From Deltaproteobacteria bacterium (GTDB taxonomy: Bacteria > Desulfobacterota > Desulfomonilia > UBA1062), in assembly GCA_018433775.1 (NCBI GenBank), contig JAHDQN010000040.1:20587-84586 (forward strand): a stretch of 64,000 nucleotides of DNA. The letters run 5' to 3'. Position 1 is the stretch's first letter; the number at the start of each line of letters is the position of its first letter. The position numbers were made by a program, and so were the translations under genes. Below the pieces are notes generated by a model. It did no database searches, was not told the DNA's origin, and was given only the letters and a program-made list of their open reading frames with translations. Below are positions 2,029-25,353 of this stretch, piece by piece.

Positions 2029-2070
2029 AAAATATTATTCCTTTCACATAAAAAACATTTGTGACTTGAT

Positions 2071-2127: not shown

Positions 2128-2130
2128 GAT

Positions 2131-2985: not shown

Positions 2986-2995
2986 AATGCCTCCT

Positions 2996-3052: not shown

Positions 3053-3079
3053 AGCCTACCCATATAATTTTATCTGGCA

Positions 3080-3880: not shown

Positions 3881-3896
3881 AAATACTGCCCCCTAT

Positions 3897-4311: not shown

Positions 4312-5946
<1,635 letters not shown>

Positions 5947-6271: not shown

Positions 6272-9200
6272 TTATTGCCGTGCATACAGGTCCTGCAGCG
6301 ACGACACGCCGAAGCCGCCCGCCTGCAGGGACCTGACGGCCTCGAGGCTCGCCCGCGAGGCCGCGACGGTCGTGGCGTAGGGGACGCTGTAGCGGATGGC
6401 GCTGCGGCGAATGTGGTGCGCGTCCTGCGAGGGTTTTCTGCCGATGCTCGTGTTGATGATCAACTGGATCTCGCGGTTCTTGATGTGGTCGACCACGTTG
6501 GGCCGGCCCTCGCTCACCTTGAGCACCACCTCGGCGTCAACGCCGCTCGCCTGCAGGTGCCGCGCGGTGCCCCGGGTGGCGACGATGCGGAAGCCGAGCC
6601 CGGCAAAGCCCTTTGCCACTTCCGTGATCCGGGCCTTGTGCATGTCGTGGACGCTGACGAACACGGTCCCGGAGTCCGGAAGGCCCGAGCCGGCCGCGAT
6701 CTGCGACTTGGCGAAGGCGGCCCCGAACGAGAAGTCCACCCCCATAACCTCGCCCGTCGACTTCATCTCCGGGCCAAGCCCCACGTCCGCGTCGGGAAAG
6801 CGCTGGAACGGAAACACGGCCTCTTTCACCGAGACGTGGGCAGGCACGACCTGCTCGGTGAAACCGAGCTCTTCAAGCGTCCGGCCCAGCATGACCTTGG
6901 TGGCGATCCGGGCCAGGGGCCTGCCGATTGCCTTGCTCACGAAGGGCACGGTCCTCGACGCCCGGGGGTTCACCTCCAGCACGTACACCTCGCCGTCCTT
7001 GACGGCGTACTGGATGTTCATGAGCCCGACCACCCCGATCTCTTTGGCGATCAGCCGGGTCTGCTCCCTGATCGTCTCCCGTATCTTCTCCGGCAGGGTC
7101 GCGGGCGGCAGCACGCACGCGCTGTCTCCGGAGTGGATGCCCGCCTCCTCGATGTGCTCCATGATCCCGCCGATCACCGTGGTTTGGCCGTCGCAGACCG
7201 CGTCCACGTCGACCTCGACCGCGTCCTCCAGAAAGCGGTCGATGAGCACGGCGTTGCCCGGAAAGAGCTTGAACACGCCGGTGATGAAGGTCTTCAGGGC
7301 TTGAGCGTCGTAGATGATCTCCATGGAGCGGCCGCCCAGCACATACGAAGGCCTGACCAGCACCGGGAAGCCGATCCCATCGGCCGCGGCGAGGGCCTCG
7401 TCAACGGTGAAGGCGATGTCGCTCTGCGGCTGCCTGAGATCGAGCTTCTTCACGATCTCGTTGAACCGCTCCCGGTCCTCGGCCCGGTCGATGGCGTCGG
7501 GCTGGGTGCCCAGGATGGTCACGCCCTCGTTCCACAGGTCCCGGGCGAGGTTGAGCGGGGTCTGGCCCCCGAACTGCACGATCACGCCCTCCGGGCTCTC
7601 GGCCCTGATCACGTGCAGCACGTCCTCCAGGGTGAGCGGCTCGAAGTAGAGCTTGTCCGAGATGTCGTAGTCCGTGCTCACGGTCTCGGGGTTGGAGTTG
7701 ATCATGATGCTCTCATAGCCCATCTCGCGCAGCGCGAACGAGGCGTGCACGCAGCAGTAGTCGAATTCGATCCCCTGGCCGATCCGGTTGGGCCCGCCGC
7801 CGATGATCACCACCTTGGGCCGCCCGGACGGCCTTGTCTCGGTCTCGGTCTCGTAGGTGGAGTAGTAGTAGGGCGTATAGGCCTCGAATTCGGCGGCGCA
7901 GGTGTCCACGAGCTTGTACACCGGCACGATTCCCTCGCGGAAACGCAGCCCCCGCACCCCGTCTTCGCCCATGCCCCAGGCCTCGGCCAGGAAGCGGTCG
8001 GAAAAGCCCATCCGCTTGGCCTCTTCCAGCAGCTCTTTTGAGGGCTTGCTGTTTTTGAGCGTGCCCTCGAACTCCACCAGCTCGCCTATGTGATAAAGAA
8101 ACCAGGGGTCGATCCCGGTCATGGCGTGTATCTCGTCCATGCCCATCCCGCTCCTGAGCGCCTCTGCCAGCCAGAACAGCCGGGCCGAGTTGGGATAGGT
8201 GAGCCGCGAGACGATCTCCTTGCGGTCTGCGGCGGCGCCTGCCTCGACCGGGCTGTTCAGGCCGTACCTGCCGGTCTCGAGCGAGCGGAGTGCCTTGCCG
8301 AGCGCCTCCTTGAAGGTGCGGCCGATGGCCATGGTCTCGCCCACGGACTTCATCGAGGTGGTGAGCAGGTCAGGGGTCTCCGGAAACTTCTCGAAGGTCC
8401 AGCGGGGGATCTTGACCACGCAGTAGTCGATGGCCGGCTCGAACGAGGCACAGGTCTCGCGGGTGATGTCGTTGGGGATCTCGTCCAGGGTGTAGCCCAC
8501 GGCCAGCTTGGCAGCGATCTTGGCGATGGGGAAGCCCGTTGCCTTTGACGCCAGGGCCGACGAGCGCGACACCCGGGGGTTCATCTCGATCACCACGATG
8601 TCCCCGTTCTTCGGGTTGACCGCGAACTGGACGTTGGAGCCGCCCGTCTCAACGCCGATCTCGCGCATGACCGCGACCGCGGCGTTGCGCAGATCCTGGT
8701 ACTCCACGTCGGTCAGGGTCTGGGCCGGGGCCACGGTGATGGAGTCGCCCGTGTGCACGCCCATGGGGTCGAGGTTTTCGATGGAGCAGATGATCACCAC
8801 GTTGTCCGCCCGGTCGCGCATGACCTCGAGCTCGTACTCCTTCCATCCGATCACCGACTCCTCGAGCATGATCTCGGTGATCATGCTCGCGTCGAGCCCG
8901 GCCTTTGCCATGACCTCGAGTTCTTCGGGGTTGTAGGCGATCCCGCCGCCGATCCCGCCCAGGGTGAACGAGGGCCGGACGATGACGGGGAAGCCGATCC
9001 GGCGGGCGATGGCAAACACCTCGTCCATGTTCCGGGCAAACCCGCTCTCCGGGACGCGCAGGCCGATGTTTTCCATGGCATGCCTGAACTTCTCGCGGTC
9101 CTCGGCCTTGTGTATGACCTCGGGTGTGGCACCGATCATCTCTACGCCGTACCTGTCGAGCACCCCCATCTCGTGGACCTTTACCGACACGTTCAGGCCG

Positions 9201-9481
9201 GTCTGGCCGCCCAGGGTCGGGAGTATGGCGTCGGGACGCTCCAGCTCGATTATCCTGGCCACCACCTCGGGCGTTATGGGCTCGATGTAGGTCCTGTCAG
9301 CGAGCTCCGGATCGGTCATGATGGTGGCCGGGTTCGAGTTGATGAGCACGACCCGGCAGCCCTCTTCCTTCAGGGCCTTGCAGGCCTGGACGCCCGAGTA
9401 GTCGAACTCGCACGCCTGGGAGATGACAATGGGTCCTGACCCGATGATGAGTATATTCTTCAGATCATTTCGTCGCGGCAT
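6272..9481 (-). CDS. carB: Carbamoyl-phosphate synthase large subunit
   Basis: 1069 aa. The N-terminus is [30 protein letters not shown], with duplicated ATP-grasp halves and an MGS-like C-terminus. Confidence 0.97.
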
Positions 9482-9758: not shown

Positions 9759-10751
9759 TTATGCGCTCAGCTTCGACCCCGCGGGTGCCGGCACGTCGAC
9801 TTCCCTGATCCTGATGCCTCTGGCTTTGAGGGCCTGCCGGCCGGCCAGCAGGTCCCTGCCGGCGATCTTGTCGAGCACATAGATCAGGTTGCCGCCGCGC
9901 TCGGCGTATATCTGCCCGTACGAGATCGGGATCTCAGGGGAGGGGTCGTCGAGAATCGAGCGGGTGATCGGTTCGAGCTTGCGCTCGCCGTTGGCAAGGA
10001 GCATGACGGTCTTTGCCTTGTACACGAGCTCGGCCCCCATCGAGACGGCATACCGGGGAGAGTCTTTCTCGGTGGCGAAATGGCCGTCGGCCACCGCGTT
10101 GGCGACCGTGTTGCCGTCGAGCTTCACGAGCAGGACATTGCTTCCCTTAAAGGGGATGCCCGACTCATGGAAGGCCACGTGGCCCCTGCCGCCCACGCCG
10201 ATGACCTGCAGGTCGATGCCTCCGGCCTTGCGGATCTTGCGGGCATAGCCGTCCAGGATCTCTTTCCTGATCCACCCCAAATATGCGGAGTCCGGGTTGC
10301 TCCGGATGGCAACCGACTTCCCCTTGTCGGTCCCCCTCTCCTCCCAGTCCTGCGGGTTTGCCTTGAGCTCGGCCACGAGCTTTTTCTGCTCGATCAGCGC
10401 GCCGTAGGGCACGTTGGTCTCGATGAACTTGCCCTTGAGAAGGCTGAAGAACTCCTGAATCATAAAAAATGCATAGCTCTCGGGGTGCATGACGCGGAGC
10501 TGGGCGTTCTCGCCCGGCAGGCCCACGTACTCGTCCAGGTTGAAGCTCCGGCAGCGTTTCGAGTCGAACTCGCCCTGGTTCGCCGCCTGTGCGAGATGCT
10601 TGTAGAGCCCTGTGGGCGAGTTGCCCGTCGCAAGCCCCAGCACGGCCTCCTGCTTCTGTTTCAGCACCTGCTGGATTTTATCCTTGGCAATGTCCGCGGC
10701 AACCTCGCTCATCGAGGCAAAATCATCAGTTACGAAAATCTCGATTCCCAT
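9759..10751 (-). CDS. Glucosamine-6-phosphate deaminase/isomerase family protein (NagB-like, with insertion)
   Basis: 330 aa. Motifs are GLATGNSPTGLY and DLQVIGVGGRGHVAFHESG. An insertion of about 60 aa relative to classical NagB lies around residues 120-180. Confidence 0.75.
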   Translation of the reverse strand: MGIEIFVTDDFASMSEVAADIAKDKIQQVLKQKQEAVLGLATGNSPTGLYKHLAQAANQGEFDSKRCRSFNLDEYVGLPGENAQLRVMHPESYAFFMIQEFFSLLKGKFIETNVPYGALIEQKKLVAELKANPQDWEERGTDKGKSVAIRSNPDSAYLGWIRKEILDGYARKIRKAGGIDLQVIGVGGRGHVAFHESGIPFKGSNVLLVKLDGNTVANAVADGHFATEKDSPRYAVSMGAELVYKAKTVMLLANGERKLEPITRSILDDPSPEIPISYGQIYAERGGNLIYVLDKIAGRDLLAGRQALKARGIRIREVDVPAPAGSKLSA

Positions 10752-10794: not shown

Positions 10795-12165
10795 TTATGA
10801 GGCTGCGGCCTCGCTCATGCCGAGCACCTTTTCCACGAGTTCCGCCAACTGGGTGCAGTATTTCTCCGTGACGTCCACCGACGGGCCTTCTACCATGACC
10901 CGGCACATGTTCTGGGTCCCGGAGTAGCGGACCAGGACGCGCCCCTGGTCGCCGAGCTCGCTCTCGACCTGGCTGATCGCGTCTCTGAGCTCGGGCACTG
11001 TGGAGATGTCCGGCTTGGTCTTCACGTTGACATTGATGAGCTTCTGCGGGTAGATGTCCATGAGCTTCGCCAGCTCCGAGAGCGGCTTGCCGGTCCTGAC
11101 CATGGCGGCTACGAGCTGCATGGCCGTGAGAATGCCGTCGCCCGTGGTGTGGTGGTCGAGGAAGATGAGGTGCCCCGAGTCCTCGCCGCCGATGACCCCG
11201 CCCATTTTGAGCATGTCCTCGAGCACGTAGCGGTCGCCCACCTTTGCGGCGTGATGGCTGAAACCGTACTTTTTGCAGGCCACCCTCAGCCCCAGGTTGC
11301 TCATGACCGTGCTCACCAGGAGATCGTTCTTGAGCCTGCCCTCTTCCTTGAGTATCCGGGCGCAGATGAGCAGGATCTGGTCCCCGCTGATCTCCTGCCC
11401 CTTCTCGTCGACCGCGATGAGCCGGTCCCCGTCTCCGTCGAACGCCAGGCCCACCGCCGCGCCGGTTTCCAGGACCCGCTTCTTCAGGTCAGCGGTATGC
11501 TGCGAGCCGCACGCGTCGTTGATGTTCAGCCCGTTCGGCGAGTTGTGCAGCACCTCGACATCGGCGCCCAGCTCGGTGAAGGCATCGGGCGCGACCCGGT
11601 ACGTGGCGCCGTTGGCGGTGTCCATGACGATCTTCATCTCCTCCATGGAGAGGTCCCGCGGAAAGGTGTTTTTCAGGAACACCACATACCGGCCGTTCAC
11701 GTCTTCCATCCGCAACGCCCGGCCCATGTCCTTGGAAGGGGGCAGGTGCTTTGCCAGTTTGCTGTTCAGGATGAGGTCCTCGATGGTGTCTTCCTGCTCG
11801 TCCGAGAGCTTGAACCCGTTGCCGCCGAAGATTTTGATCCCGTTGTCCTCGTAGGGGTTGTGCGAGGCCGAGATCACGATGCCCGCGTCGGCCCGCATGC
11901 TGTTGGCGATAAAGGCGATCCCCGGCGTGGGAAGCACGCCGACCAGATAAGGGTTGCCGCCCATGGAGGTGATGCCGGCTTCCAGCGAGCTCTCGAGCAT
12001 ATAGCCCGAGATGCGGGTGTCCTTGCCGATGATGATCCGTGTGCGGTGATGCTCCTTCCTGAGGAGATACGTCACCGCCTGGCCCACCAGGAAGGCGATC
12101 TGCGCGTTCATGGGGTATTTGTTCGCCTCCCCGCGTATTCCGTCCGTACCGAATAGCTTGCCCAT
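10795..12165 (-). CDS. glmM: Phosphoglucosamine mutase
   Basis: MGKLFGTDGIRGEANKYPM at the N-terminus and the active-site motif SASHNPYEDNGIK. The ATG at 12165 is preceded by AAAGGAGGA. The track's 40-codon upstream extension is rejected. Confidence 0.93.
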   Translation of the reverse strand: MGKLFGTDGIRGEANKYPMNAQIAFLVGQAVTYLLRKEHHRTRIIIGKDTRISGYMLESSLEAGITSMGGNPYLVGVLPTPGIAFIANSMRADAGIVISASHNPYEDNGIKIFGGNGFKLSDEQEDTIEDLILNSKLAKHLPPSKDMGRALRMEDVNGRYVVFLKNTFPRDLSMEEMKIVMDTANGATYRVAPDAFTELGADVEVLHNSPNGLNINDACGSQHTADLKKRVLETGAAVGLAFDGDGDRLIAVDEKGQEISGDQILLICARILKEEGRLKNDLLVSTVMSNLGLRVACKKYGFSHHAAKVGDRYVLEDMLKMGGVIGGEDSGHLIFLDHHTTGDGILTAMQLVAAMVRTGKPLSELAKLMDIYPQKLINVNVKTKPDISTVPELRDAISQVESELGDQGRVLVRYSGTQNMCRVMVEGPSVDVTEKYCTQLAELVEKVLGMSEAAAS

Positions 12166-12212: not shown

Positions 12213-13436
12213 TTAAAACAACTGCAGGCCGGGCATGGCCTGGGAAACCGCCTTGGCGTGTGATGTAACGACGCTTTCCAGCCATGCCGTCCCTTGATCG
12301 GAAACATCCGCGGGCAGACCCTGGATGGTTTCGATGTAACCGTCCCGTCCTGCCTGCATCGCCCTGTTCAGCCCGCCCAGGAACTCATCTTTCAGCGTTT
12401 CCGCGTCTGAACCAGGGATTGTATCCATCTCAAACATCTCTTTGATTTTATCGCTATTTTTTGTGAACCCGTCCCCGAATTGGGGGGCGCGCTTGGCCAT
12501 TGCCTCGAGCCGCTTCAGGCGTTCCTTGCGGGCGAGCGAGAGCTTGTCGAGGAGGCCTGCGTGGATGAGGGGGCCGAACTCGACCGCGTCCAGGAAGGGC
12601 TTGCGCACGTGGACATACCACTCGCGCAGGGCCGCGAGGTTCGCCAGATAGAGGATGTTGTTCTCCACCACGCGCTTGAGGTTCGGGTACAGGGCCGGCT
12701 GATACTCCCTTACTCCGCCCGGGTGCGGCTCGACCGTGATCAGACAGTTGTCGTCCGGGCAGTCCTGCCTGAGCACCGAGCCCGCGGCCACGACGTTGCC
12801 GAACCCCATGCGGACCGGCCCAACGATCCCCCCCTGGCCTCCGAGGAAGATGGGCGGCCGGTTCAGCATCACGCCCCTGGGCACGTCGCCGAGCAGCGAG
12901 GGGGTCGTCTTGTCGCCGTCCGGGGTGAAGTTGAAGTGGATGTACGAGCTCCCCACCTCGCTGTGGTCCTTGCGGCTGGTTCCCCCGGCCATGAGGCAGT
13001 CGCAGAAGTTGATCAGGCTGCCCAGGGTCACGAAGGGGAAGAGTATGGTCTGCTTGAGCCCCACGCAGTGGGCACCGCCCGCCTCCTCCTCCAGGATCGA
13101 ACCCTCGCGGACATGGGCGCCCAGGCCCATGTTGGATCTGTCGAGGAACACCGACTTGCTGAAATAGCCGCCCTTGAGCTCCACGTCGCGGCCGATCTGG
13201 CAGTCCTCGATCGTGACCGGGCCTTCGCGGCCGATCTGCGCGCCCGATGAGATGACGGTCTTCTCGCCGTAGATCCTGCACCCGGGATAGATCCTGACGC
13301 CCTGCGCGGATATCCGCCCGATGTCGACCTCTTCCCCGATATCGAGGGTCAGGGGGTTGGGGAGATCGATCCCCTTCTCGAGCAACTGCACGATCTTCTC
13401 ATGGCATCGCGGCGTTATGTCCATCGGCACCTCCAT
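12213..13436 (-). CDS. Left-handed beta-helix (hexapeptide-repeat) protein, GlmU acetyltransferase-domain-like, with helical C-terminal extension
   Basis: Hexapeptide-type repeats run through IGRISAQGVRIYPGCRIYGEKTVISSGAQIGREGPVTIEDCQIGRDVELKG. The start is ATG 13436, or ATG 13424 with a GGAGGTG RBS. The track's upstream extension overlaps the preceding gene in another frame. Confidence 0.6.
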   Translation of the reverse strand: MEVPMDITPRCHEKIVQLLEKGIDLPNPLTLDIGEEVDIGRISAQGVRIYPGCRIYGEKTVISSGAQIGREGPVTIEDCQIGRDVELKGGYFSKSVFLDRSNMGLGAHVREGSILEEEAGGAHCVGLKQTILFPFVTLGSLINFCDCLMAGGTSRKDHSEVGSSYIHFNFTPDGDKTTPSLLGDVPRGVMLNRPPIFLGGQGGIVGPVRMGFGNVVAAGSVLRQDCPDDNCLITVEPHPGGVREYQPALYPNLKRVVENNILYLANLAALREWYVHVRKPFLDAVEFGPLIHAGLLDKLSLARKERLKRLEAMAKRAPQFGDGFTKNSDKIKEMFEMDTIPGSDAETLKDEFLGGLNRAMQAGRDGYIETIQGLPADVSDQGTAWLESVVTSHAKAVSQAMPGLQLF

Positions 13437-13498: not shown

Positions 13499-16400
13499 TC
13501 AGATTCTTGAAGGCCGGGATTCCCCGATCCGTTCGAATATCAAGCTCGTGATCGTCTCCACGTCCTCCCCGAGCAGCAGCCTCAGGGGCAGACGCTCGAG
13601 ATACGCGTCGTCCCAGGCGACATTGTATTCGTCGACAAGGTTCCTGAGGTCGTTGTACTTCTCGGCCAGGATCTCCTTCTTGCGTTCGACGTCCAGGTCC
13701 TCGCAATAGTCGACGTGGAGCAGGAGCAGGTGCTCCACGGCCCGCAGGGAGTTCAGGAGCGGGACGATCACGATGGAGGCGTGGTCAGATTTGCCCTCGC
13801 CGGCATAGACGTTGCCGGTGCGGACAATGGTCTTTTTGGTGCCCATGAGTGTCCCGGTCTCGTCGAACCGCGAGCGCATGCCCGCGGCGACACCATGTTT
13901 CCCGATTGTCCGGATGGTCGAGCCCTCGGTGGGCCTCCCCTCATCGTCGAGGTTGCCCACGGCATAGAGGGTGTAGCCGTTGATGCGGCTTATCGCATCC
14001 TGCAGGCGCTTGAGCACGATGCCGCCCCTTGCGGGGATGTTCTCGACCGTGAACGACAGGTCTTCGAGCGCATCGAAGATAACGCCCCGTGGGGCCTCCA
14101 CCCGCCTGCTCGTGCCCACGGTAACGGTCTTGGCCTGGTGCCGGATGGCGTCAACGGGCCGCGAGAGCTCGTCGATCGCCCTGCCCAGGGCGGAATCCAG
14201 CTCGTCCAGGGGCGAGGCGGTCACCCGGTGGGCGCCGAACTCGCTCCAGAAATCCTCGATGGGCAGCTTGCCCACCGCGTACTTCAGAAGCAGGGTGATG
14301 TCGGAAGCGGTTTCCACGTTCATTGACGTGAGCATGCCCGATCTCCTCCAGGAGTTGAACATCGCGGAAAAGTCGTCCACGCAACGGTGCAGGTCGCGGT
14401 CTTCGATGCTCTCGTAGATGGAAAGACCTTTCTTCTCCTGGCAGCGCATGATCTCGGACAGGCTCGACCTGAACGGTTTGAAGGCCCCCGCCTGCGCGTC
14501 GAGACTGCACGCGGCATAGTATCCCCAGATGTGCCCTGCCAGGGTGTTGAGGATCACCGAGAGCGGAAAGCCCGAGCGGGGCACGTGGATCACCGAGTCC
14601 GCTATCGCGTCGAAGCGCTTCTCGCCCTGGTCCGCGATGACCACCACGCTCGATGCATGGGCGTGGAAGATGGCCACGTCCTTGACCACGTCTTCGAGCA
14701 CGATGTCCGGGCTCCCGGCCGCGCACACCAGGATCAGGGGCTCGGACGAGAGATCGATGTGCTTCTTGTCCTCGATCACGTCCGAGGAGATGGTCTTGTA
14801 GCACAGCTCGCTGAGCTTGATCCGGATCTCGTCGGACGCGGTCTTGTTTGCGCCGCTTCCCACCACTGCCCAGTATTTCTTTTTTCTCACCAGGTCCCAT
14901 GCCGAGCTCCTGATCGCCTCGCGCGAGGCGATGACCTCCTGCATGAGCTTAGGCGACTGCTCGATCCGGGAAATCTCCCGGACGATCCTTTCGCGGGAGA
15001 GCGCGCCCATAAGCTGCGCCATGAACAGGGCGAGAATATAGCCCGCGGTGATCTGCGAGTAGAACGCCTTGGTCGATGCCACGGACATCTCGATGTCGCG
15101 GCCGTCGCTCGTGTAGAATACCCCGTCCACCTTTGTGGTGATGTCCGACTGCCTCCGGTTCACGATGGCGATCAGGTGCGCGCCCCGCTCCCTGGCCATG
15201 GTCACGGCCCGGTTGGTGTCCGTGGTGGTGCCCGACTGGGTGATGGCGATCACCAGGCAGTCCGTCATGTCTTCGTCGAGGCAGAACCCGCTCAGATCGG
15301 TGGCCTTACGCGCCAGGACCGAGATAGGCGTGCCCTTCAGGTAGATCGCGAGCGCCTCGGCCACGGCAGCGCCCGCAATGGCCGCAGTGCCCTGACCCAC
15401 CACGTAGATCCGTCTGATCACGCCCGAGACGAGCGCATCGCGCACCGCGGCAGGAACCACGGCCTCGTCCAGGTTGAAGGCCACCCTCCGGCCGCCTTCC
15501 ACCCGGTACTTTCCCCGGATGGTCTTCCGGATCGACTCCGGCGCGTCCAGGATCTCCTTAAGGAGAAAATGGGGGAAGGTCCCGCGGTCGATATCCCGGG
15601 TGGTGATCTCGGCGCGCCGGATATCGCCCTGCCCGAGCTCCAGGGGCCGGCCGTCGTAGTACATGGCCTCGATCCCTCCGAGCCCGCCCCCGCCGGCATT
15701 ATCCAGGATGAAGATCTGGCCCCGGGTGCACTCATCGCCCGGGACGCGCTCCCGCTCGCCGTCCATTTTGATGAATAACGGGGTCTCCTCCACCAGGCCG
15801 TAGACCTCGGAGGAGAAGACATACTGGTTCTCGCAGATGCCCACATAGATGGTCTGTCCGCTTCCCTTTACACCAAGAAATACCCTGCCTGGCTCCAGGT
15901 TGCTCTCCATGGCGATGGCGTGCGAGCCCTCGAAGTCGTTCACGGCCCTCCTGAATGCCTCCTTGAGGTCGTGGCCCTGGCAGAGGTACCGCTCGATCAC
16001 GAGCGGGATGATCTTGGTATCGGTGGTCACGCGCGGGTCGATCCGGCACCCTATAGCCTGCAGGCCTTCCTTGAGCGGGAGATGGTTGTCGATGTCGCCG
16101 TTGAGCACGACATTGATGGCCCAGGTGCCGCTCCCGTAGAAGGGATAATGTTTCCTCGCCGTCTGGAAGTCCCACTGCTCGTTCGATTCCCCGTCCATGG
16201 CGAAGTTGTTGACCGGATGGCAGTTCGTCTCGTTGATGGCGCCCACCGAGGCCCAGCGCGTATGCGCCAGGTACATCTGCGAGTTTGGTGCATGATCCAT
16301 CACCAGACGAAGGATGGGGTCTGCGCTTATGGACGCTCTGAGCGATCTCGTGTTGTCTCCCAGGTCTCCGGTGACGAGCGCGGTCTTGTAGGTGAAAATC

Positions 16401-17230
16401 AGGGCTCCGGGCGAGACGTGGATGGATCCGTCCATCAGGTCTCCGGGAGGGCAGCGCCTCATGAAGAGATCGTAAAGACCTGCAGCCTTAATCCTTTCCA
16501 TCACGTCCTTCATCTCCCGCGGGCCGGGAAAGCAGAACGCGGCCTGCACCCCGCAGGAGTCTCTGCCCCGCACCTCGAGCCGGTCGAGGGCATTGAGGGC
16601 GAAGTTGAGCCGCTGGTACTTCTCGAATGCCGTAAGCGCCAGCTGGCGGGAGTCTGCGCAGAGCGACGCGATCTTTTTCTGGTTCCCGAGCACGTCCTCA
16701 TGAAGCGCCCATGAGATGTCCTTGAGAAGGATCAGGGACCTCATGAGGTTCTCCATGTCGAGGGTGGAGAGCGAGGCCGCCTCCTTTTCCAGGATACGCT
16801 CCTCCTGGTCCACGAATGCGTCCATGTCCGCGCACAGGTTCTCGAGGCGGTCGAAAAGCTCCTTGCGAGCGAGCGTCCACTGGTTCCCGGAACTCTGCTT
16901 CAGACGGTACACGTCCTGTTCGAAAACCCGGAGCTCTTTGGGGTCGAGGTACTCATCCGGCGCGATCTCCCTGCCGAGCACCCTGTTCAGTGCACATGCC
17001 CGCACCTGGTCGAAGTGCAGACCGAGTATACGAAGGATGTCGTCACGTGGTGCATCCTCCCCGCCCCTGACGACCAGGATACCGGCCAGGCCGCACAGGA
17101 GCGTGCAGGGCTGGACAGGGAAAAGTACCACGGACCGGGCCGGGAGGTTCTTCGGCTCGCGTCCGATGTACAACCTCCACTGGGCTGTTTTCTTCATCAT
17201 TGCCCGCACTATCGCCTTCATAGCATCCAT
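13499..17230 (-). CDS. Giant GlmS-like protein: class-II (Ntn) glutamine amidotransferase domain with large insertion, two SIS domains, and an extra C-terminal region of about 350 aa
   Basis: 1243 aa. GATase-II motifs are LLCGLAGILVV (Cys at residue 46), RGRDSCGVQ and RWASVGAINETNCHPV. SIS motifs are VGQGTAAIAGA...AITQSGTTTDT and VVGSGANKTASDEIRIKLSE. Confidence 0.7.
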   Translation of the reverse strand: MDAMKAIVRAMMKKTAQWRLYIGREPKNLPARSVVLFPVQPCTLLCGLAGILVVRGGEDAPRDDILRILGLHFDQVRACALNRVLGREIAPDEYLDPKELRVFEQDVYRLKQSSGNQWTLARKELFDRLENLCADMDAFVDQEERILEKEAASLSTLDMENLMRSLILLKDISWALHEDVLGNQKKIASLCADSRQLALTAFEKYQRLNFALNALDRLEVRGRDSCGVQAAFCFPGPREMKDVMERIKAAGLYDLFMRRCPPGDLMDGSIHVSPGALIFTYKTALVTGDLGDNTRSLRASISADPILRLVMDHAPNSQMYLAHTRWASVGAINETNCHPVNNFAMDGESNEQWDFQTARKHYPFYGSGTWAINVVLNGDIDNHLPLKEGLQAIGCRIDPRVTTDTKIIPLVIERYLCQGHDLKEAFRRAVNDFEGSHAIAMESNLEPGRVFLGVKGSGQTIYVGICENQYVFSSEVYGLVEETPLFIKMDGERERVPGDECTRGQIFILDNAGGGGLGGIEAMYYDGRPLELGQGDIRRAEITTRDIDRGTFPHFLLKEILDAPESIRKTIRGKYRVEGGRRVAFNLDEAVVPAAVRDALVSGVIRRIYVVGQGTAAIAGAAVAEALAIYLKGTPISVLARKATDLSGFCLDEDMTDCLVIAITQSGTTTDTNRAVTMARERGAHLIAIVNRRQSDITTKVDGVFYTSDGRDIEMSVASTKAFYSQITAGYILALFMAQLMGALSRERIVREISRIEQSPKLMQEVIASREAIRSSAWDLVRKKKYWAVVGSGANKTASDEIRIKLSELCYKTISSDVIEDKKHIDLSSEPLILVCAAGSPDIVLEDVVKDVAIFHAHASSVVVIADQGEKRFDAIADSVIHVPRSGFPLSVILNTLAGHIWGYYAACSLDAQAGAFKPFRSSLSEIMRCQEKKGLSIYESIEDRDLHRCVDDFSAMFNSWRRSGMLTSMNVETASDITLLLKYAVGKLPIEDFWSEFGAHRVTASPLDELDSALGRAIDELSRPVDAIRHQAKTVTVGTSRRVEAPRGVIFDALEDLSFTVENIPARGGIVLKRLQDAISRINGYTLYAVGNLDDEGRPTEGSTIRTIGKHGVAAGMRSRFDETGTLMGTKKTIVRTGNVYAGEGKSDHASIVIVPLLNSLRAVEHLLLLHVDYCEDLDVERKKEILAEKYNDLRNLVDEYNVAWDDAYLERLPLRLLLGEDVETITSLIFERIGESRPSRI

Positions 17231-17332: not shown

Positions 17333-18493
17333 CTACGAGATGTGCCGCATTCCGGCGGTCAAGCCTGCAGGCGAGCCCATCATTCCAAGAAATTCCCTGA
17401 AGAGATAGCCGGCGTCGTGAGGCCCGGGAGACGCCTCGGGATGATACTGAACGCTGAACGCCCGGTAGGCTGGATACCTGACGCCCTCCAGGGTCTGGTC
17501 GTTGAGATTGACGTGAGTGACCTCGGCATCTTTGGGCAGCGTTTCCGTGACCACGGAAAACCCGTGATTCTGCGAGGTGATCTCCACGCGGCCGGTCAGC
17601 AGGTTCCTCACCGGCTGGTTCACGCCGTGGTGGCCGAACTTGAGCTTCTCGGTCCTGGCGCCGAAGGCCTGGGAGAGTATCTGGTGCCCCAGGCAGATCC
17701 CGAAAATGGGCACCCTGCCCAGCAGGCGCCGGACGGTTTCGATCTCGCAGGCGAGCGGGGCCGGATCGCCCGGACCGTTGGACAGCATGATCCCGTCGGG
17801 CTCAAGCGCCAGGATATCCTCGGCCCGGGTGCGCGAGGGCATCAGAACGACCTGGCACCCCAGGCGCTCCAGGCTTCTGAGGATGTTGTGTTTTGCGCCG
17901 CAGTCGAGCACGACCACACGATGCCCGCTGCCTTTCTGCAGGGGTCCTTCAAGGGGCGCCGCTTTCCCGGACTTCCAGAGATGCGGCCGGGAGCAGGTCA
18001 CCGACGACACGATATCCCTTCCGGTCAGCCCGGGATAGGCGCGCACCTGCTCCAGAAGCTCCGGCACCTTGTCATACCGCGTGGACACGATCCCCCGCAT
18101 GGCGCCCGCGGTCCTGATCCTGCGGGTCAGCGCCCGGGTGTCCACCCCTTCGACCCCGATCCGGCCGAACTCCTCCAGGTAGCTCTGAAGCGTCCCGGTC
18201 GATCTCCAGTTGCTCGGATGGTGCTGATATTCCCTGACCACGAACCCCTTAAGGTGAATGGCGGGGGATTCCCGGTCCTGGTCGTTGATGCCGTAGCTTC
18301 CCATGAGGGGATAGGTCATAACGAGTATCTGCTCGCAATACGACGGATCGGTGAGCGCCTCCTGGTAGCCGGTCATGGCGGTGTTGAACACCACCTCGCC
18401 GCAGGCGTCACCGCCTCCGGCAAAGGCGCGGCCGCGGAAGACCGAACCGTCTTCCAAAACCACGACCGCCGGGCGCTTGTCTCGTGCTGACAT
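17333..18493 (-). CDS. carA: Carbamoyl-phosphate synthase small (glutaminase) subunit
   Basis: MSARDKRPAVVVLEDGSVFRGRAFAGGG at the N-terminus and the GATase-I motifs GICLGHQ and QYHPEA. The ATG at 18493 follows a GGAGAAGGAGGAGGGG RBS. The track's upstream extension is rejected. Confidence 0.95.
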   Translation of the reverse strand: MSARDKRPAVVVLEDGSVFRGRAFAGGGDACGEVVFNTAMTGYQEALTDPSYCEQILVMTYPLMGSYGINDQDRESPAIHLKGFVVREYQHHPSNWRSTGTLQSYLEEFGRIGVEGVDTRALTRRIRTAGAMRGIVSTRYDKVPELLEQVRAYPGLTGRDIVSSVTCSRPHLWKSGKAAPLEGPLQKGSGHRVVVLDCGAKHNILRSLERLGCQVVLMPSRTRAEDILALEPDGIMLSNGPGDPAPLACEIETVRRLLGRVPIFGICLGHQILSQAFGARTEKLKFGHHGVNQPVRNLLTGRVEITSQNHGFSVVTETLPKDAEVTHVNLNDQTLEGVRYPAYRAFSVQYHPEASPGPHDAGYLFREFLGMMGSPAGLTAGMRHIS

Positions 18494-18807: not shown

Positions 18808-20139
18808 TTAGAGCAGCGGCAGATAGGTGTCGATCTCGTACTTGCTGACATGGGTCCTGAAGGCGTCCCACTCCTTCTTCTTGTTTTCTACGAACTTCTC
18901 GAAGATGTGGTCACCCAGGGCCTCCCTCACCAGCGTGCTCCCGGACACCTCCTGGATCGCCTCGAAGAGGTTGCCAGGCAGCGAGGTGATCCCGGCCTCC
19001 TCCCGCGCCTTCTCGTCCATCTCGAAGATATCCTTCTCGATGGGCTCGGGCAGGGTATACCCTTTTTCAATGCCCTCCAGCCCGGCCGCTATCTGCACCG
19101 CAAAGGCCAGGTAGGGGTTGCAGGCCGGGTCAGGCGCCCTGAACTCGATCCGGGTGGCCTTGGCCTTGCCCGGCTTGTACATGGGGACCCTGAGCATTGC
19201 CGAGCGGTTTCTCCTGGCCCAGGACACGTAGACCGGGGCCTCGTAGCCGGGAACGAGCCTCTTGTAGGAGTTCACCCACTGGTTGGTGACCGCGCAGATC
19301 TCCCGGGCGTGGTTGAGAATACCCGCGATGTAGTGCTTGCCCACCTTCGAGAGATGGTACTTGTCGCCCGCGTCGAAAAAGGCGTTGTCGTCGCCCGTGA
19401 ACAGCGACTGGTGGACGTGCATGCCGCTGCCGTTCTCGCAGGCGAGCGGCTTGGGCATGAAGGTGGCGTACACCCCGTGCTGGCGGGCGATCTCCTTGAC
19501 CGTGGTCCGGTAGGTCATGACGATGTCGGCCATGGTGAGCGCCTCTTTGTACCGCAGGTCGATCTCGTGCTGCGACGGGGCGACCTCGTGGTGGCTGTAC
19601 TCCACCTGGATGCCCATCTTCTGCAGGCTGAATATGGTGTCGCGCCGGATGTCGGGGCCCCGGTCGATGGGCAGGCCGTCGAAGTACCCTCCCCTGTCCA
19701 GGATGGTGGTGCACTTGTCGTCTGCGAAGTAGAAGTATTCCAGCTCCGGCCCGAGAAACACGTTGTACCCTTTCTCAGCCGCCCTGGCCAGCACGCGCTT
19801 GAGCGCGTATCGCGGGTCGCCTTCGTAGGGGGTGCCCTCCGGGGTCAGGATGTCGCACACCATGCGGGCCACGGGATAATCCGACGGTCTCCAGGGCAGG
19901 AGCTGGAAGGTGGCGGGGTCCGGCTTGGCGATCATGTCGCTCTCGTGGACCCGGGCAAAGCCCTCGATGGAGGACCCGTCGAAACCCATGCCCTCCTCGA
20001 TGCCTTCTTCAAGTTCCGAGGGCGTCAGATTGAAGCTCTTGAGCCTGCCCAGAACATCGGTGAACCAGAACTGTATGAAGCTGACCTTGTGTTCCTTTAC
20101 AGCCTTCATAACATCTTGCTTTGTCTTGCATTGTAACAT
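18808..20139 (-). CDS. glnA: Glutamine synthetase, type I
   Basis: 443 aa from the ATG at 20139 (GGAGGA RBS): MLQCKTKQDVMKAVKEHKVSFIQFWFTDVLG. Further motifs are GSGMHVHQSL and NPYLAFA. Confidence 0.95.
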   Translation of the reverse strand: MLQCKTKQDVMKAVKEHKVSFIQFWFTDVLGRLKSFNLTPSELEEGIEEGMGFDGSSIEGFARVHESDMIAKPDPATFQLLPWRPSDYPVARMVCDILTPEGTPYEGDPRYALKRVLARAAEKGYNVFLGPELEYFYFADDKCTTILDRGGYFDGLPIDRGPDIRRDTIFSLQKMGIQVEYSHHEVAPSQHEIDLRYKEALTMADIVMTYRTTVKEIARQHGVYATFMPKPLACENGSGMHVHQSLFTGDDNAFFDAGDKYHLSKVGKHYIAGILNHAREICAVTNQWVNSYKRLVPGYEAPVYVSWARRNRSAMLRVPMYKPGKAKATRIEFRAPDPACNPYLAFAVQIAAGLEGIEKGYTLPEPIEKDIFEMDEKAREEAGITSLPGNLFEAIQEVSGSTLVREALGDHIFEKFVENKKKEWDAFRTHVSKYEIDTYLPLL

Positions 20140-20187: not shown

Positions 20188-22521
20188 CTATTCCAGGGGT
20201 TCGTTTTCCCTGAGCTCCCATATCCCGCACGGGCAGGCCCCTGCACAGAACCCGCACCCGATGCAGCGGTCGTCTTCGAGGCAGTACTCAAAGCCGCCTT
20301 CCGGGATGTCCTTCCGGAAGATTGCCTGACGGGGGCAAATCGCCTCGCATACCCCGCAGTCCCTGCATCCGCCGCAGGAGGCGCACATCTCCGAGCACTG
20401 TCCGATGTCCTCCGCAGCCCGGCGCCCCGGGTCGTAGTACTCGAGCCTCACCCGGCCGGCATCCATGGGTGACGGCGCTTCCGGCGGCCCGTGTACGCCT
20501 TTGATCAGCGCATCGATCGACTGCGACACCCTTCTGCCCGCACCGATGGCGTCGGTGATAAGCCCGGGCTTTACGCTGTCTCCGACGGCGTACACCTTTG
20601 GATCGGACGTGCGGCAACCATCGTCCGCCACGATGAAACCGTGACGGCTGTCTATGTCTTCGGGGAGGAATGATATGTCAGGCCGGTCGCCGATTGCAAC
20701 AACTACTGTATCACCCGGGAGAATTTTGCCGTCCGCAAGCTCGACGCCCGTGGCGTTTATCGCCCGTGCCGACACCGGCCAGAGAAACCGGGCACCCGCC
20801 CTTTCCGCAGCCGCGCGCTCGCGGCCGAAGGACGCGGGCTCCCGGACGTCGATCAGGGTGATTTCCTCAGCTCCCAGGCGGCTCGCCTCGGTGGCCGCAT
20901 CGCAGCCCACGTTGCCCGCGCCGATGATCACGACCCTGCCTCCAACCGTGATGTCGCCGCGCTTCGATCTTCGGAGAAAATCCAGTGCAGGCACCGCCAT
21001 CTCGCCACCCGGTATCCCGAGGGTGCAGGGAATCCCGGCACCCACGGCGATGACCGTGAAATCGTGACCTTCTTTCAGAGCCAGGAACTCCTTCTGACCG
21101 AACTCTCCCATTAGCCGTCTGAAAGAAATCTTTTCGAGAACCCGGCCGAGCTCCCTGCGGAACACCTCATCGGGAAAGCGGGTGCCCGGTATGGCCTCCG
21201 CGATCTTCCCGCCCGGCTCGGGCGACCGGTCGTACACCACGGGCTCGTGTCCCTTCATCCAGAGCTGCCAGGCAACGGACAACCCGGCCGGACCGGCCCC
21301 GAGGACCGCGACCTTCGCGCCCGTGGACGCACAAGGCCGGGGCTCGCGGGCATCCAGGCTCGCCCTGCCGAGCACGGTCACATCCACTGGGGTCATATGG
21401 TCCAGATTTCTGGTGCAGCTCTGCATGCACAGGTTCGGGCAGAGGTAACCGCACACCGTGGCCGGAAAAGGTGTGTACTGGAGCGCCAGGTCCACGGCCT
21501 CCTGCACCAGGCCCCTGCGGATGAGCTCCCAGCGCCTCTGCACCGGAATGCCGGCCGGGCAGGCCGCCTGGCAGGGCGGTACATGCTTGTGGTTTTCCCA
21601 TATGGGCGCGAACCTGCGCATCGGGCCGGTCGCGATCACCGGGACCTGGCCGCGGTCCATATCGGTGAGGTCCCCGATCAAGCCTCCCGTTCCCAGCTCC
21701 CGCTCCCATACCCGTGAACGGAACCGTGAAATGGATATCCGTTTCCCGCAGTCCTTCTCATGGGGCTCAAGCGCAGCGAGAAGCCGCCAGGCGGACCGGT
21801 CGCCGCTCAGCACATCGAGAAGATCCTCACGGCCGATGGCCCTCAAGAAATCCTTCATGCCGCTCTGAAGCCATTGCCAGTCCTCGTCGCCGATGCGGGT
21901 CATCCTGACGTCGGCCTCGCTGTAGCTCTTCTGGGTGCCGCGGAAGAAAATCCTGCCGCCCACCATGCCCACGCAGGGATTGTGCCCCAGGATATTGCCC
22001 CGATAATGCGAGCCCAGGCCGCATACCACGGCCACGCCACCGGCCATGAACTCGGCGAACGAATCGCCCACCCCTCCCAGGACCCAGAGCTCGGGCGGTG
22101 AGAACCGGGGGTTGCTCTTGGTCATGGTCATGCCCCTGGCGCCGATGTCGCCGGCAATATAGATCCTGCCCTGGGCCATGGCATTGGCGATGCCGTTGGT
22201 TGCATCGCCGTGCACCACGATGGTAGCACCTGCGTTGAGCCACCCCACATCATCGGATGCATGACCGTGAACCTCGATGAATGTGTGCGGTGATCCCATG
22301 GAGCCGATCCGCTGACCCGGGTGCCCATGGATGTCGATGAGCACCGGCTCCGGGCCGGTATTCCAGAGCCTGCCGCCGATCCCGTGCTGGCCGTAGGCCT
22401 GCACCTCGACCCTGGGGTATCCGCCTGCAACCGCCTTCTGGATGCGCTCTTCCAGAACCCGGGATTCCACCCGGCTCCCCTCTTCCATGCCCTGGATCAC
22501 GACCTTCTCGTGCCGGTTCAT
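20188..22521 (-). CDS. Glutamate synthase GXGXG-domain (GltB domain 3) fused to GltD-like FAD/NAD(P) oxidoreductase and a C-terminal 2x[4Fe-4S] ferredoxin
   Basis: From the ATG at 22521 (MNRHEKVVIQGM). The GXGXG region is GQHGIGGRL...HGHASDDVGWLNAG...GDATNGIANAM. The dinucleotide fold is KVAVLGAGPAGLS. The C-terminal clusters are CGGCRDCGVCEAICP and CIGCGFCAGACP. Confidence 0.8.
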   Translation of the reverse strand: MNRHEKVVIQGMEEGSRVESRVLEERIQKAVAGGYPRVEVQAYGQHGIGGRLWNTGPEPVLIDIHGHPGQRIGSMGSPHTFIEVHGHASDDVGWLNAGATIVVHGDATNGIANAMAQGRIYIAGDIGARGMTMTKSNPRFSPPELWVLGGVGDSFAEFMAGGVAVVCGLGSHYRGNILGHNPCVGMVGGRIFFRGTQKSYSEADVRMTRIGDEDWQWLQSGMKDFLRAIGREDLLDVLSGDRSAWRLLAALEPHEKDCGKRISISRFRSRVWERELGTGGLIGDLTDMDRGQVPVIATGPMRRFAPIWENHKHVPPCQAACPAGIPVQRRWELIRRGLVQEAVDLALQYTPFPATVCGYLCPNLCMQSCTRNLDHMTPVDVTVLGRASLDAREPRPCASTGAKVAVLGAGPAGLSVAWQLWMKGHEPVVYDRSPEPGGKIAEAIPGTRFPDEVFRRELGRVLEKISFRRLMGEFGQKEFLALKEGHDFTVIAVGAGIPCTLGIPGGEMAVPALDFLRRSKRGDITVGGRVVIIGAGNVGCDAATEASRLGAEEITLIDVREPASFGRERAAAERAGARFLWPVSARAINATGVELADGKILPGDTVVVAIGDRPDISFLPEDIDSRHGFIVADDGCRTSDPKVYAVGDSVKPGLITDAIGAGRRVSQSIDALIKGVHGPPEAPSPMDAGRVRLEYYDPGRRAAEDIGQCSEMCASCGGCRDCGVCEAICPRQAIFRKDIPEGGFEYCLEDDRCIGCGFCAGACPCGIWELRENEPLE

Positions 22522-22570
22522 GCGTCCGCCCCCCGATGTCCGGGTGTTTTTTCTGTCATGGCCGGGCACC

Positions 22571-24205: not shown

Positions 24206-25299
24206 CTCCTGACCTCCATCCGCGAGGCATCCACACAGGCGAGGTCGTATTTCATGGGCTGGAATTCGCAGTTTCCTTCCCGGACGGGAATGGCCCCGTC
24301 GAGCCCGCACATCTCGGAAGAGAAGGCGAACATCCCGGGCCTGCCTCCCACAACGCCCGGCCTGAGTTTCTTGCTGTCGTGGACCATGAAGAGTGTCTTG
24401 TCGGGCAGACACCCGATCACACAGTTGGGCCCGTCGATGGTGAGAAAACGGCAGCCGTGCTTGAGCCTTCTCAGAAACGCACTGTCCGGGTGCCTGGTCA
24501 GCTCCTCGTCCTTGAGCGGGGTGATGATGTGTTTGTAGGCATCGATCCCGAGCCCAAGCCGGTTTGCGGTGTAGTGCAGGATATGGGTGAACACCTCGGA
24601 GTCAGACTGATAGCCCGCATATCCGGGAAAACCCCGCGACATCAGATAATCCCGTATAGGCCCGAACGCGGTGTTCTCGCCGTTGGTCATGGTGGCGAAG
24701 CCCTGGAGAAAGAAGGGGTGGCAGGCATAGAGGGTAACGGCATAGTTGGTGTTCTGCCTGCCCTGGGCCATGATCACCCGCGCCTTCAGACTCTTCCGGT
24801 CGAGCCCGAGATATTCGGCTATGGCCAGGGGATCGCCTACTTCCTTGATCATGATCGTGTCCGGCCAGAAGGAAAAGACCATCATGGACCCGTCCTGCTC
24901 GCCCAGCCTCCTCAGGTCGATCCGGATCCTCATGAGCCGCGCCGCGATCTCGGCCTCGCTCAGGCCCTCCCACTCGAAAGGATACTCATACACCCGGATG
25001 AGGTACACGTCGCGTTTCGGGGTGCCCTCGGGCGGCTCCTTGGCGGGCCTGATGGAAAGCTTGAACTTGGTGAGCAGGCCCAGCTCCATCATGTAGCGAT
25101 CGAGCCTCTTGATCCCTTCCTGGGAGAAAACGCCCGAAAGGATGGGAGAACCCCTGAACTGTTCCAGGTCCCCGCCGAGGTCGGTCATGAACAGGCCGAC
25201 CCCGGAACCGTCGTGGCCTTCTTTCATGACGTCCAGGGCACGCAGGGCGACCATGGGCGAGAGCGGCTCGTTACTCGTTATGGCGAACAGACGGCACAC
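24169..25299 (-). CDS. Glutamate synthase glutamine amidotransferase subunit (class-II Ntn, GltB domain 1 type)
   Basis: I propose the GTG start at 25297-25299, which puts Cys directly after the initiator (M-CRLFAITSNEPLSP), as Ntn amidotransferases require. AAGGAGGA lies upstream. The track start at 25392 is rejected. Confidence 0.75.
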   Translation of the reverse strand: MCRLFAITSNEPLSPMVALRALDVMKEGHDGSGVGLFMTDLGGDLEQFRGSPILSGVFSQEGIKRLDRYMMELGLLTKFKLSIRPAKEPPEGTPKRDVYLIRVYEYPFEWEGLSEAEIAARLMRIRIDLRRLGEQDGSMMVFSFWPDTIMIKEVGDPLAIAEYLGLDRKSLKARVIMAQGRQNTNYAVTLYACHPFFLQGFATMTNGENTAFGPIRDYLMSRGFPGYAGYQSDSEVFTHILHYTANRLGLGIDAYKHIITPLKDEELTRHPDSAFLRRLKHGCRFLTIDGPNCVIGCLPDKTLFMVHDSKKLRPGVVGGRPGMFAFSSEMCGLDGAIPVREGNCEFQPMKYDLACVDASRMEVRRWSQWEPCTHLH

Positions 25300-25337: not shown

Positions 25338-25353
25338 AGCGAAATCCGTGCCA
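25338..25353 (-). promoter_or_regulatory. Candidate sigma-54 (-24/-12) promoter of the glutamate synthase-glnA operon
   Basis: The minus strand reads TGGCACGGATTTCGCT. GG and GC have the correct spacing, with one mismatch to TGGCACG-N4-TTGC. It lies about 40 nt upstream of the proposed GTG start. Confidence 0.5.

Follow-up and report, generated by a model that had tools for sequence, protein, structure and literature searches.

A Double-Length GlmS-Like Protein with an Internal Nucleophile Cysteine, Encoded in a Glutamine and Nitrogen Gene Cluster

A 64,000-nucleotide stretch of DNA from a Deltaproteobacteria bacterium (GenBank assembly GCA_018433775.1, contig JAHDQN010000040.1, forward-strand positions 20,587 to 84,586; here called the window) encodes a GlmS-like protein of 1,243 amino acids (aa). 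It raises the question of whether, and how, such an oversized relative could work as an enzyme when its nucleophile cysteine is not at the N terminus. GlmS, the glutamine-dependent glucosamine-6-phosphate (GlcN6P) synthase, carries out the committed and usually essential step to UDP-N-acetylglucosamine (UDP-GlcNAc), which leads on to peptidoglycan, lipopolysaccharide, and exopolysaccharides. It is a textbook N-terminal nucleophile (Ntn) amidotransferase and an antibiotic target. The original prediction described the protein as about twice normal size, with three departures from GlmS: an internal nucleophile, a large helical insertion, and an unassigned C-terminal region. The translation and its homologues bore out the size and all three departures. 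We favor, with a probability of about 0.6, a catalytically competent long-form branch of the GlmS/GFAT family (EC 2.6.1.16), which would be a glutamine-dependent GlcN6P synthase with a propeptide that is removed and with allosteric gating.

The GlmS core of the long protein

The open reading frame (ORF) has its translation start at ATG 17230 or at the in-frame ATG 17221. All of the canonical GlmS motifs that had been claimed were found in the translation, including CGLAGIL (residues 46 to 52), RGRDSCG (221 to 227), and HTRWASVG..N.HP (323 to 339). Further GlmS motifs were LNGDIDN, TDT, TQSGTTTDT, VASTKAF, IKLSE, and KKH. Pfam placed GATase_6/7 at residues 318 to 479 and one SIS domain at 606 to 734, and the NCBI GlmS models aligned residues 312 to 911 to model positions 60 to 585. 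The nearest solved structures are Escherichia coli GlmS and human GFAT1.

Among 5.8 billion proteins searched, more than 115 are full-length homologues (1,200 to 1,290 aa, 52 to 91% identity), and they stem from many independent assemblies. Most are named "SIS domain-containing protein" in the databases, and some are automatically labeled GlmS. The long architecture, at 1,135 to 1,290 aa, recurs in hundreds of independent assemblies from several phyla. When one genome per species was scanned, at least 533 species-level genomes encoded the C-terminal region. The best 80 of these were all metagenome-assembled genomes (MAGs), assigned to Syntrophales, Syntrophaceae, Smithella, Desulfomonilia, Desulfobacterales, or Thermodesulfobacteriota, and the closest among the matches listed was JAHDKO010000001 (93%; locus L004). 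When the C-terminal domain was used as the profile in an exhaustive HMMER search, the family widened to 279 clusters at 50% identity. The phylogenetic distribution, which the original prediction had proposed to determine, thus takes in Desulfobacterota, Planctomycetota, and Candidatus Xenobia. The long gene is real and widely conserved.

Residues were matched to those of E. coli GlmS with the 1jxa alignment, and 44 full-length representatives that are 31 to 43% identical to the ORF served as a distant comparison set. The nucleophile, C46, is invariant in at least 40 representatives at this level of identity. So are the glutamine site (R221, D224, R325, W326, H338, N377, G378, and D404), the phosphate loop and strand for fructose-6-phosphate (Fru6P; T615, Q665, S666, T669, S719, and K721), the isomerase catalytic residues (K805, E808, and H824), and K1034 in the C-tail. 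The glutamine site has the equivalents of E. coli R26, R73, W74, H86, N98, G99, and D123. The isomerase half has two SIS sub-domains, an S/T-Q-S-G-x-T phosphate loop, and the VASTKAF strand, and K805, E808, H824, and K1034 correspond to E. coli K485, E488, H504, and Lys603. Splicing the CGLAGILVV segment onto the core added 7 bits over a scrambled control in a GlmS model. The overall fold of both domains is that of GlmS, and both active sites are under strict purifying selection.

A longer and very divergent branch of about 1,540 aa also carries the C-terminal alpha/beta domain (P0333, on a 61.9-kb contig, P0355, and P0364; E values, 5e-20 to 2e-14). Its changes include R221 to A, W326 to A, Q665 to N, K721 to F or Y, and E808 to S. 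It may be a pseudo-enzyme or a neofunctionalized relative.

Extension, insertions, and displaced C-tail

In GlmS and GFAT the nucleophile is the first residue after the initiator Met. Here it is residue 46; as had been noted, a CTG (Leu) codon precedes it, and no start codon adjoins it. The class-II Ntn clan requires a free alpha-amine on this Cys. The extension consists of a variable basic helix and then a motif, W..i.GR.P..lP..SiilFP....l, directly before CGLAG. All full-length homologues in the Desulfobacterota clade have 25 to 60 residues before the Cys. The motif is conserved as protein across loci in which the DNA has diverged, and therefore the upstream start is real. For this clade, this disposes of the scenario in which the true start lies right before the Cys. 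We used two AlphaFold2 (AF2) models, one of residues 1 to 1200 with 115 homologues (predicted local distance difference test [pLDDT], 83; predicted template-modeling score, 0.74) and one of residues 906 to 1243 (pLDDT, 89). The first predicts a helix at residues 2 to 16 and strands at 19 to 22 and 33 to 36 (pLDDT, ~68 to 80), with low confidence around Cys46.

The distant set places the extension in the history of the family. Of its 44 members, 29 begin with Met-Cys-Gly yet keep the helical insertion and the whole C-terminal region; Planctomycetota and Candidatus Xenobia are among the sources of these Met-Cys forms. About 12 others have a 17- to 71-residue extension with the same FP....CG motif. 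As far as these alignments reach, the extension is confined to the Desulfobacterota clade, and most distant members start Met-Cys. Because the Met-Cys relatives share the long architecture, that architecture is the ancestral one and is compatible with a normal Ntn N terminus, and the extension is a later, clade-specific addition. An internal Cys that is clade specific, on top of an older multi-phylum family, argues for a glutaminase that needs processing and not for a dead domain. The original prediction had left these two options side by side (propeptide removal or a non-catalytic domain), and the Met-Cys relatives favor the first and disfavor the second.

Precursors in MEROPS family C44 offer a precedent. 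The propeptides of GltB are similar in length to the ~45 aa seen here. In C44, a propeptide before the catalytic Cys of an Ntn glutaminase is removed to free the alpha-amine (PMC5753285), and an N-terminal Cys is noted for GlmS (PMC10087520). The long protein shares with the C44 precursors (Bacillus subtilis-type PurF, and GltB, the glutamate synthase large subunit) a stretch, here of 45 aa, that directly precedes the Ntn Cys. It differs from them in that this stretch is strongly conserved and predicted to be structured, and cleavage there is putative. The GltB-type glutaminase subunit encoded in the same operon has a canonical Met-Cys start (GTG), unlike the long protein. We know of no GlmS-type enzyme with such a propeptide. 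Because a free Cys alpha-amine is needed, the glutamine site is invariant in the extension-bearing clade, and self-processing C44 precursors exist, we infer that the extension is removed, most likely by the kind of self-processing known for PurF and GltB precursors. The P1 residue, just before the Cys, is variable in the family.

The strongest competitor to removal is that the extension is retained. The enzyme would then make GlcN6P in an ammonia-dependent way, or the extension would be a reversible auto-inhibitory plug that keeps the glutaminase latent until a partner or signal moves it aside. In line with this, GR.P..lP..SiilFP is conserved in more than 100 homologues, far beyond typical propeptides; AF2 gives the extension regular secondary structure; and the highly variable residue before the Cys leaves no obvious cleavage motif. 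Also, the type of enzyme to which the operon's NagB-like protein belongs interconverts Fru6P plus NH3 and GlcN6P. However, the extension-bearing and Met-Cys clades alike keep R325, W326, N377, G378, and D404 invariant, which implies selection for glutamine hydrolysis, and self-processing is a known solution in the same clan (MEROPS C44; PMC5753285). Moreover, reversible unblocking of an Ntn amine is not known. We consider retention doubtful.

One related locus, L008, has at 7077-7211 a degenerate second copy of the extension-coding segment (33% identity, CG motif lost). It lies directly upstream of an intact long gene (start at ~7295) and may be the remnant of a 5' duplication.

The helical insertion was predicted at about 150 aa between the CG..G and RGxDSxG motifs, and it is there. 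Cys46 and Arg221 are 175 residues apart, against 25 residues in E. coli GlmS, which makes the insertion ~150 to 160 aa. AF2 models it with long helices at residues 123 to 153, 156 to 191, and 199 to 218 (pLDDT mostly above 90), and its D171 and W174 are invariant across phyla. Pfam searches of residues 1 to 227 at E values of up to 10 gave nothing credible for this region. A third insertion of ~27 aa is absent from the first account of the protein. Members of the Desulfobacterota clade conserve a YP.YG.G.W motif in it, distant Met-Cys members have mostly gaps at this place, and its pLDDT is low at residues 348 to 354.

After residue 911, the last one aligned to GlmS, 332 aa follow. The original prediction had called this region (about 350 aa) unassigned. 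That holds for significant Pfam and PDB sequence matches, but the catalytic C-tail of GlmS lies inside it and had been missed. The block RPVDAIRHQAKTVTVGTSR, with the core motif AKTVTVG that carries the Lys603 equivalent, resembles the C-terminal decapeptide of E. coli GlmS. A 41-aa peptide is too short for an informative PDB search, and so homology was judged by a splice test. The core alone (residues 216 to 910) scored 239.3 bits with NF001484 and 216.7 bits with TIGR01135, with alignments that ended at model positions 582/601 and 587/607. Joining the native tail raised the scores to 251.7 and 229.5 bits and carried the alignments to 600/601 and 606/607. A scrambled tail gave 240.4 and 217.4 bits and essentially no extension (584/601 and 589/607). 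The gain was therefore 12.4 to 12.8 bits for the native tail and ~1 bit for the scrambled one. In GlmS this tail is the free end of the chain; here, ~110 aa are inserted before it and ~200 aa follow it. Its pLDDT is low in both AF2 models. This is expected because the C-tail orders only upon Fru6P binding; in E. coli GlmS that ordering closes the isomerase site (PMC10087520).

The C-terminal alpha/beta domain is compact (residues ~1050 to 1235; pLDDT, 93 to 98 in the model of 906 to 1243), with a helix, a five-stranded antiparallel sheet, and flanking helices. Its R1121, K1132, G1146, and D1149 are invariant, a pattern consistent with a ligand pocket. Foldseek recurrently returned GAF domains (3ci6, 5hl6, 3e0y, and 4g3v), KinD/sCache sensors, and IclR effector domains at weak E values of 0.01 to 0.3, and no match at an E value of ≤0.001. 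Pfam at E values of up to 10 gave nothing credible for residues 913 to 1243, a PDB profile search with the domain alignment gave nothing, and hhalign found no match to the GAF domain of the operon's activator. Its likeness to GAF, PAS-Cache, and IclR domains thus consists of these Foldseek matches and of invariant Arg, Lys, and Asp residues such as a ligand pocket would have; it differs from them in lacking Pfam, PDB-sequence, and hhalign support and in being confined to the long family. With HMMER, it was found only at the C terminus of that family (279 representatives) and in the ~1,540-aa branch. A word-indexed search for it in other architectures gave only fragments of the same family.

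Comparison of the helical insertion, the bundle, the C-terminal domain, and the C-terminal extension of the neighboring GlmU-like protein by hhalign gave probabilities below 4%. An internal duplication or common origin of these extra modules was rejected on that basis.

Genomic neighborhood

Features of the window are collected in Table 1. Four hexosamine-related genes, the long gene among them, lie between carA and carB, and the same arrangement occurs in L004 to L008, L030, L032, and L034. We took a census of neighbors in 83 related loci of ~20 kb each. The most frequent was pyrG (52 loci); GOGAT genes occurred in 26 to 28 loci, carA and carB in 22 to 23, and glnA in 21. A gene for a GlmU-acetyltransferase-like protein is adjacent in 41 loci, in three gene orders; glmM is a neighbor in 24, and a NagB-like gene is a neighbor in 17. 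In distant members with 53% identity (L001 and L002), the gene order is activator, glnA, GOGAT, pyrG, the long gene, and hisH/hisF.

Table 1. Positions of the parts of the long gene and of its neighbors in the window (all on the minus strand)
Feature	Positions	Residues	Remarks
Long GlmS-like ORF	13499-17230	1-1243	class-II (Ntn) glutamine amidotransferase plus sugar-phosphate isomerase
N-terminal extension	17096-17230	1-45	candidate propeptide; conserved in 115 homologues and across loci
Cys46 codon	17093-17095	46	equivalent of the GlmS Cys1 nucleophile; invariant in the family, within CGLAGIL
Helical insertion	16577-17062	57-218	between strand beta-1 and the RGRDS loop; replaces helix alpha-1
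Glutaminase (Ntn) core	15611-16576	219-540	R221/D224, R325/W326, H338, N377/G378, D404
Third insertion	16118-16213	340-371	~27 aa; between the CHP motif and the LNGD strand of the glutaminase domain
Isomerase/synthase module	14498-15610	541-911	two SIS sub-domains; T615, Q665/S666/T669, S719/K721, K805, E808, H824
Inserted helical bundle	14162-14497	912-1023	~110 aa (~910-1035 in the model); between SIS2 and the catalytic C-tail
Displaced GlmS C-tail	14105-14161	1024-1042	RPVDAIRHQAKTVTVGTSR; invariant block, K1034 is the E. coli Lys603 equivalent
C-terminal alpha/beta domain	13502-14098	1045-1243	~200 aa; family specific, weakly GAF/PAS-like
sigma-54 activator with GAF domain	28708-30228		
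GltB-type glutaminase subunit	~24169-25296		canonical GTG start, Met-Cys
Glu_synthase	22571-24412		
GXGXG/GltD fusion	20188-22701		
glnA	18808-20139		
carA	17333-18493		carbamoyl-phosphate synthase small (glutaminase) subunit (Pfam); upstream of the long gene
GlmU C-terminal (LbH acetyltransferase)-like	12213-13424		directly downstream of the long gene
glmM	10795-12165		phosphoglucosamine mutase; TIGR01455, 585.7 bits (cut-off, 447.55)
NagB-like	9759-10751		glucosamine-6-phosphate deaminase; matches to nagB models and to PDB NagB chains are in two pieces and below cut-offs
carB	6272-9481		
pyrG	4312-5946		

Two signals emerge from this context. One is a link to the metabolism of GlcN6P, glucosamine-1-phosphate, and N-acetylglucosamine-1-phosphate. 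The other, which is broader, is that almost every glutamine-dependent amidotransferase is encoded close by. Conservation is highest for the nitrogen-assimilation context, with the glutamine-using enzymes glnA, split GOGAT, carA/carB, pyrG, and hisHF and the sigma-54/GAF activator. The hexapeptide-repeat protein, glmM, and the insertion-bearing nagB-like gene that had been named as neighbors were recovered from NCBIfam scores and PDB matches. From them the original prediction had proposed a nonstandard or regulated hexosamine pathway. The hexosamine link is real (41 and 24 of the 83 loci for the GlmU-like gene and glmM), but nitrogen assimilation is the more conserved setting, and such a pathway is at most suggested.

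The likely start of glmM is 12165, after a AAAGGAGG site. The GlmU-like protein is 403 aa long, and a 100%-identical protein, P0388, is on record. NCBIfam GlmU models cover its residues 9 to 230 with GlmU positions ~232 to 440 at 52 bits, far below the cut-off. It is without the uridyltransferase domain and ends in a ~170-aa helical extension with no Pfam or PDB match. Its family is very large (>8,000 matches, ~417 aa) and is automatically annotated as GlmU or UDP-GlcNAc pyrophosphorylase in Desulfobacterota, labels that look doubtful. The NagB-like protein has an insertion of ~55 to 60 aa, roughly from residues 105 to 118 to residues 165 to 175.

GlnD and hisF are nearby on the other strand (34817-38174, plus). 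A "glutamine super-cluster" may be drawn from 4312-30228 (minus) and 34817-38174 (plus), and parts of it recur around the long gene in distant relatives. One sigma-54-type site with one mismatch, TGGCACGGATTTCGCT, lies at 25338-25353 (minus) and precedes the GTG-Cys start of the gene for the GltB-type glutaminase by ~45 nt; a perfect match, TGGCACCCCCCTTGCT, lies at 33087-33102 (plus). Because sigma-54 matches in the window are fewer than expected by chance, we claim no promoter, and the two sites are only leads. No RNA element such as the glmS ribozyme matched Rfam at gathering thresholds within the window, and no tRNA gene was found there. At 43633-46422 (minus) is a gene for a 929-aa fusion of transaldolase (TAL_FSA) and phosphoglucose isomerase, both of which make or consume Fru6P, the presumed GlmS substrate. 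Positions 1 to 4000 form a low-GC island (GC content, 0.39 versus ~0.6 elsewhere) that ends just downstream of pyrG. It holds a DEDDh/RNase_T exonuclease gene (2131-2985; PADLOC PDC-S48, DEDDh), a gene for a DUF4145 protein (1327-2028; weak PD-T7-4), and two ORFs without matches. It is probably a horizontally acquired defense-type islet.

Function and its alternatives

From the identity of the binding and catalytic residues and from the glmM and GlmU-like neighbors, we infer that Fru6P is the acceptor. In the reading that we favor, glutamine would be hydrolyzed at the Ntn site by the nucleophile Cys46, and the ammonia would move to the two-SIS isomerase site. There, Fru6P would be held by the T/Q/S/T phosphate loop, and amination and isomerization would proceed through Lys1034 of the C-tail, Glu808, Lys805, and His824. 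GlcN6P would then pass to GlmM and to the GlmU-acetyltransferase-like protein encoded downstream. The 45-aa extension would block the alpha-amino group of the nucleophile until self-processing. The helical insertion would sit in place of helix alpha-1, beside the equivalent of the Arg26 loop. The C-tail lid would be tethered between the helical bundle and the ligand-binding-type alpha/beta domain, which would probably gate lid closure allosterically. The gene would be expressed within a nitrogen-assimilation cluster of glutamine-using enzymes. The extra modules are likely to be regulatory because each is grafted onto an element that controls GlmS activity: the N-terminal amine, the alpha-1/Arg26 loop, and the C-tail lid.

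Several points weigh against this reading. The ORF scored 244.7 bits with NF001484 (cut-off, 381) and 219.1 bits with TIGR01135 (cut-off, 418.05). With the insertions spliced out and the tail joined, the scores were 268.2 and 240.3 bits, still below the cut-offs. Because even this minimized form falls short, the core is a divergent GlmS relative, and its substrate identity is not guaranteed. The sole mapped difference that we noted is Ala616 in place of the phosphate-binding residue Ser303 of E. coli. Cleavage of the extension is putative; its conservation is unusually high for a propeptide, and the residue before the Cys varies. The GAF-like assignment has Foldseek E values of 0.01 to 0.3 only, with no support from sequence methods. 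Finally, in other phyla (Planctomycetota and Xenobia) the gene stands alone, without hexosamine neighbors.

Some of these points would also fit a paralogue that uses another acceptor, such as another ketose phosphate or a substrate of a specialized amino-sugar pathway, while a canonical GlmS encoded elsewhere does the housekeeping. Scores far below the GlmS equivalog cut-offs even without the insertions and the Ala at the Ser303 position would be in keeping with this, as would a partner left-handed beta-helix protein in which the uridyltransferase half of GlmU is missing and an unassigned C-terminal domain of its own is present, and a NagB-like neighbor that also bears an insertion. However, the remaining Fru6P-binding and catalytic residues are all identical to those of GlmS, and a bona fide glmM recurs as a neighbor. 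A glmU-glmS operon is a familiar arrangement, and a GlmU-like gene directly upstream of the long gene mirrors it. In addition, no canonical glmS paralogue was found in the window or in the 83 related loci, which at ~20 kb cover a small part of each genome. On balance, we regard a different acceptor as unlikely.

Even less probable is a non-enzymatic sensor or regulator on a GlmS scaffold, like the SIS-based glucokinase regulatory protein or the RpiR/MurR effector domains, in which binding of sugar phosphate and glutamine would serve only signaling within the nitrogen-assimilation cluster. The extra sensor-like domains and the regulatory neighborhood, with the sigma-54/GAF activator, GlnD, and glnA, would suit such a role. 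However, both active sites are invariant at 31 to 43% identity, including the nucleophile Cys, the Schiff-base Lys, Glu808, and His824, which would be unexpected in a pseudo-enzyme, and Pfam found no DNA-binding or output domain. This reading is very improbable.

An artefact, in which mis-assembly or a frameshift fused separate genes or the start was mis-called, has next to no chance of being right: some homologues on long contigs are split or shorter (e.g., P0132, P0137, P0164, and P0208) and the end of P0031 is truncated and frameshifted, but hundreds of independent assemblies, which span several phyla, contain the same full-length architecture, the extra segments are both conserved and modeled with confidence, and the N-terminal extension is conserved as protein. 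The false gene fusion that the original prediction had entertained is excluded on these grounds, given more than 115 homologues and at least 533 species genomes. P0132, P0137, P0147, P0164, P0174, P0178, and P0208 are C-terminal parts of the family that were called as separate proteins of 270 to 570 aa, on contigs of 45 to 564 kb. Frameshifted or split genes could account for them, as could sequencing errors in long-read MAGs.

The competent, gated long-form synthase that we prefer can be compared with known systems. It shares with bacterial GlmS (E. coli, PDB 1jxa/4amv; TIGR01135) the class-II Ntn glutaminase and two SIS sub-domains, the glutamine-site, Fru6P-site, and catalytic residues including the C-tail Lys, and genomic linkage to glmM and a GlmU-related gene. 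It differs in having twice the length, its nucleophile at residue 46 rather than 2, the ~160-aa (in place of alpha-1) and ~27-aa insertions, an internal C-tail, and Ala at the Ser303 position. Eukaryotic GFAT1/2 (PDB 6r4e) are likewise GlmS relatives enlarged by insertions. However, the GFAT insertion is a loop elsewhere in the glutaminase domain, GFAT is only ~680 aa long with a Met-Cys start and a free C-terminal tail, and the extra modules have no sequence similarity. The insertions of GFAT serve regulation; two reports connect them with UDP-GlcNAc feedback and protein kinase A phosphorylation (PMC7000685 and PMC8041777). A full-text literature search found no publication on a long or propeptide-bearing GlmS.

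A more specific version of the favored reading can be put forward tentatively. The protein could be a zymogen-type, allosterically gated GlcN6P synthase, with a self-cleaved propeptide in Desulfobacterota and a lid gated by the GAF-like domain in all phyla. A metabolite at the R1121/K1132/D1149 pocket would then decide whether the lid closes over Fru6P and the ammonia channel opens. Candidate ligands would be signals of nitrogen status or of the hexosamine end product, for example 2-oxoglutarate, glutamine, GlcN6P, or UDP-GlcNAc. Such protein-level control would replace the RNA-based control (glmS ribozyme and GlmY/GlmZ) used elsewhere.

Species that carry the double-size branch number at least several hundred in Syntrophales, Desulfomonilia, and other Desulfobacterota, and the branch is also present in Planctomycetota and Candidatus Xenobia. 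Because databases label the family only "SIS domain-containing protein," the hexosamine entry step is effectively unannotated in these lineages. The family offers a natural experiment in protein-level gating of an amidotransferase, and if processing is true, it may include the first self-processing GlmS. It is relevant to amidotransferase and cell envelope specialists, and would be more so if both self-processing and lid gating hold. The place of the long gene in a cluster with GOGAT, CarAB, PyrG, HisHF, and glnA plus a sigma-54/GAF activator suggests that syntrophic anaerobes partition glutamine nitrogen in a coordinated way.

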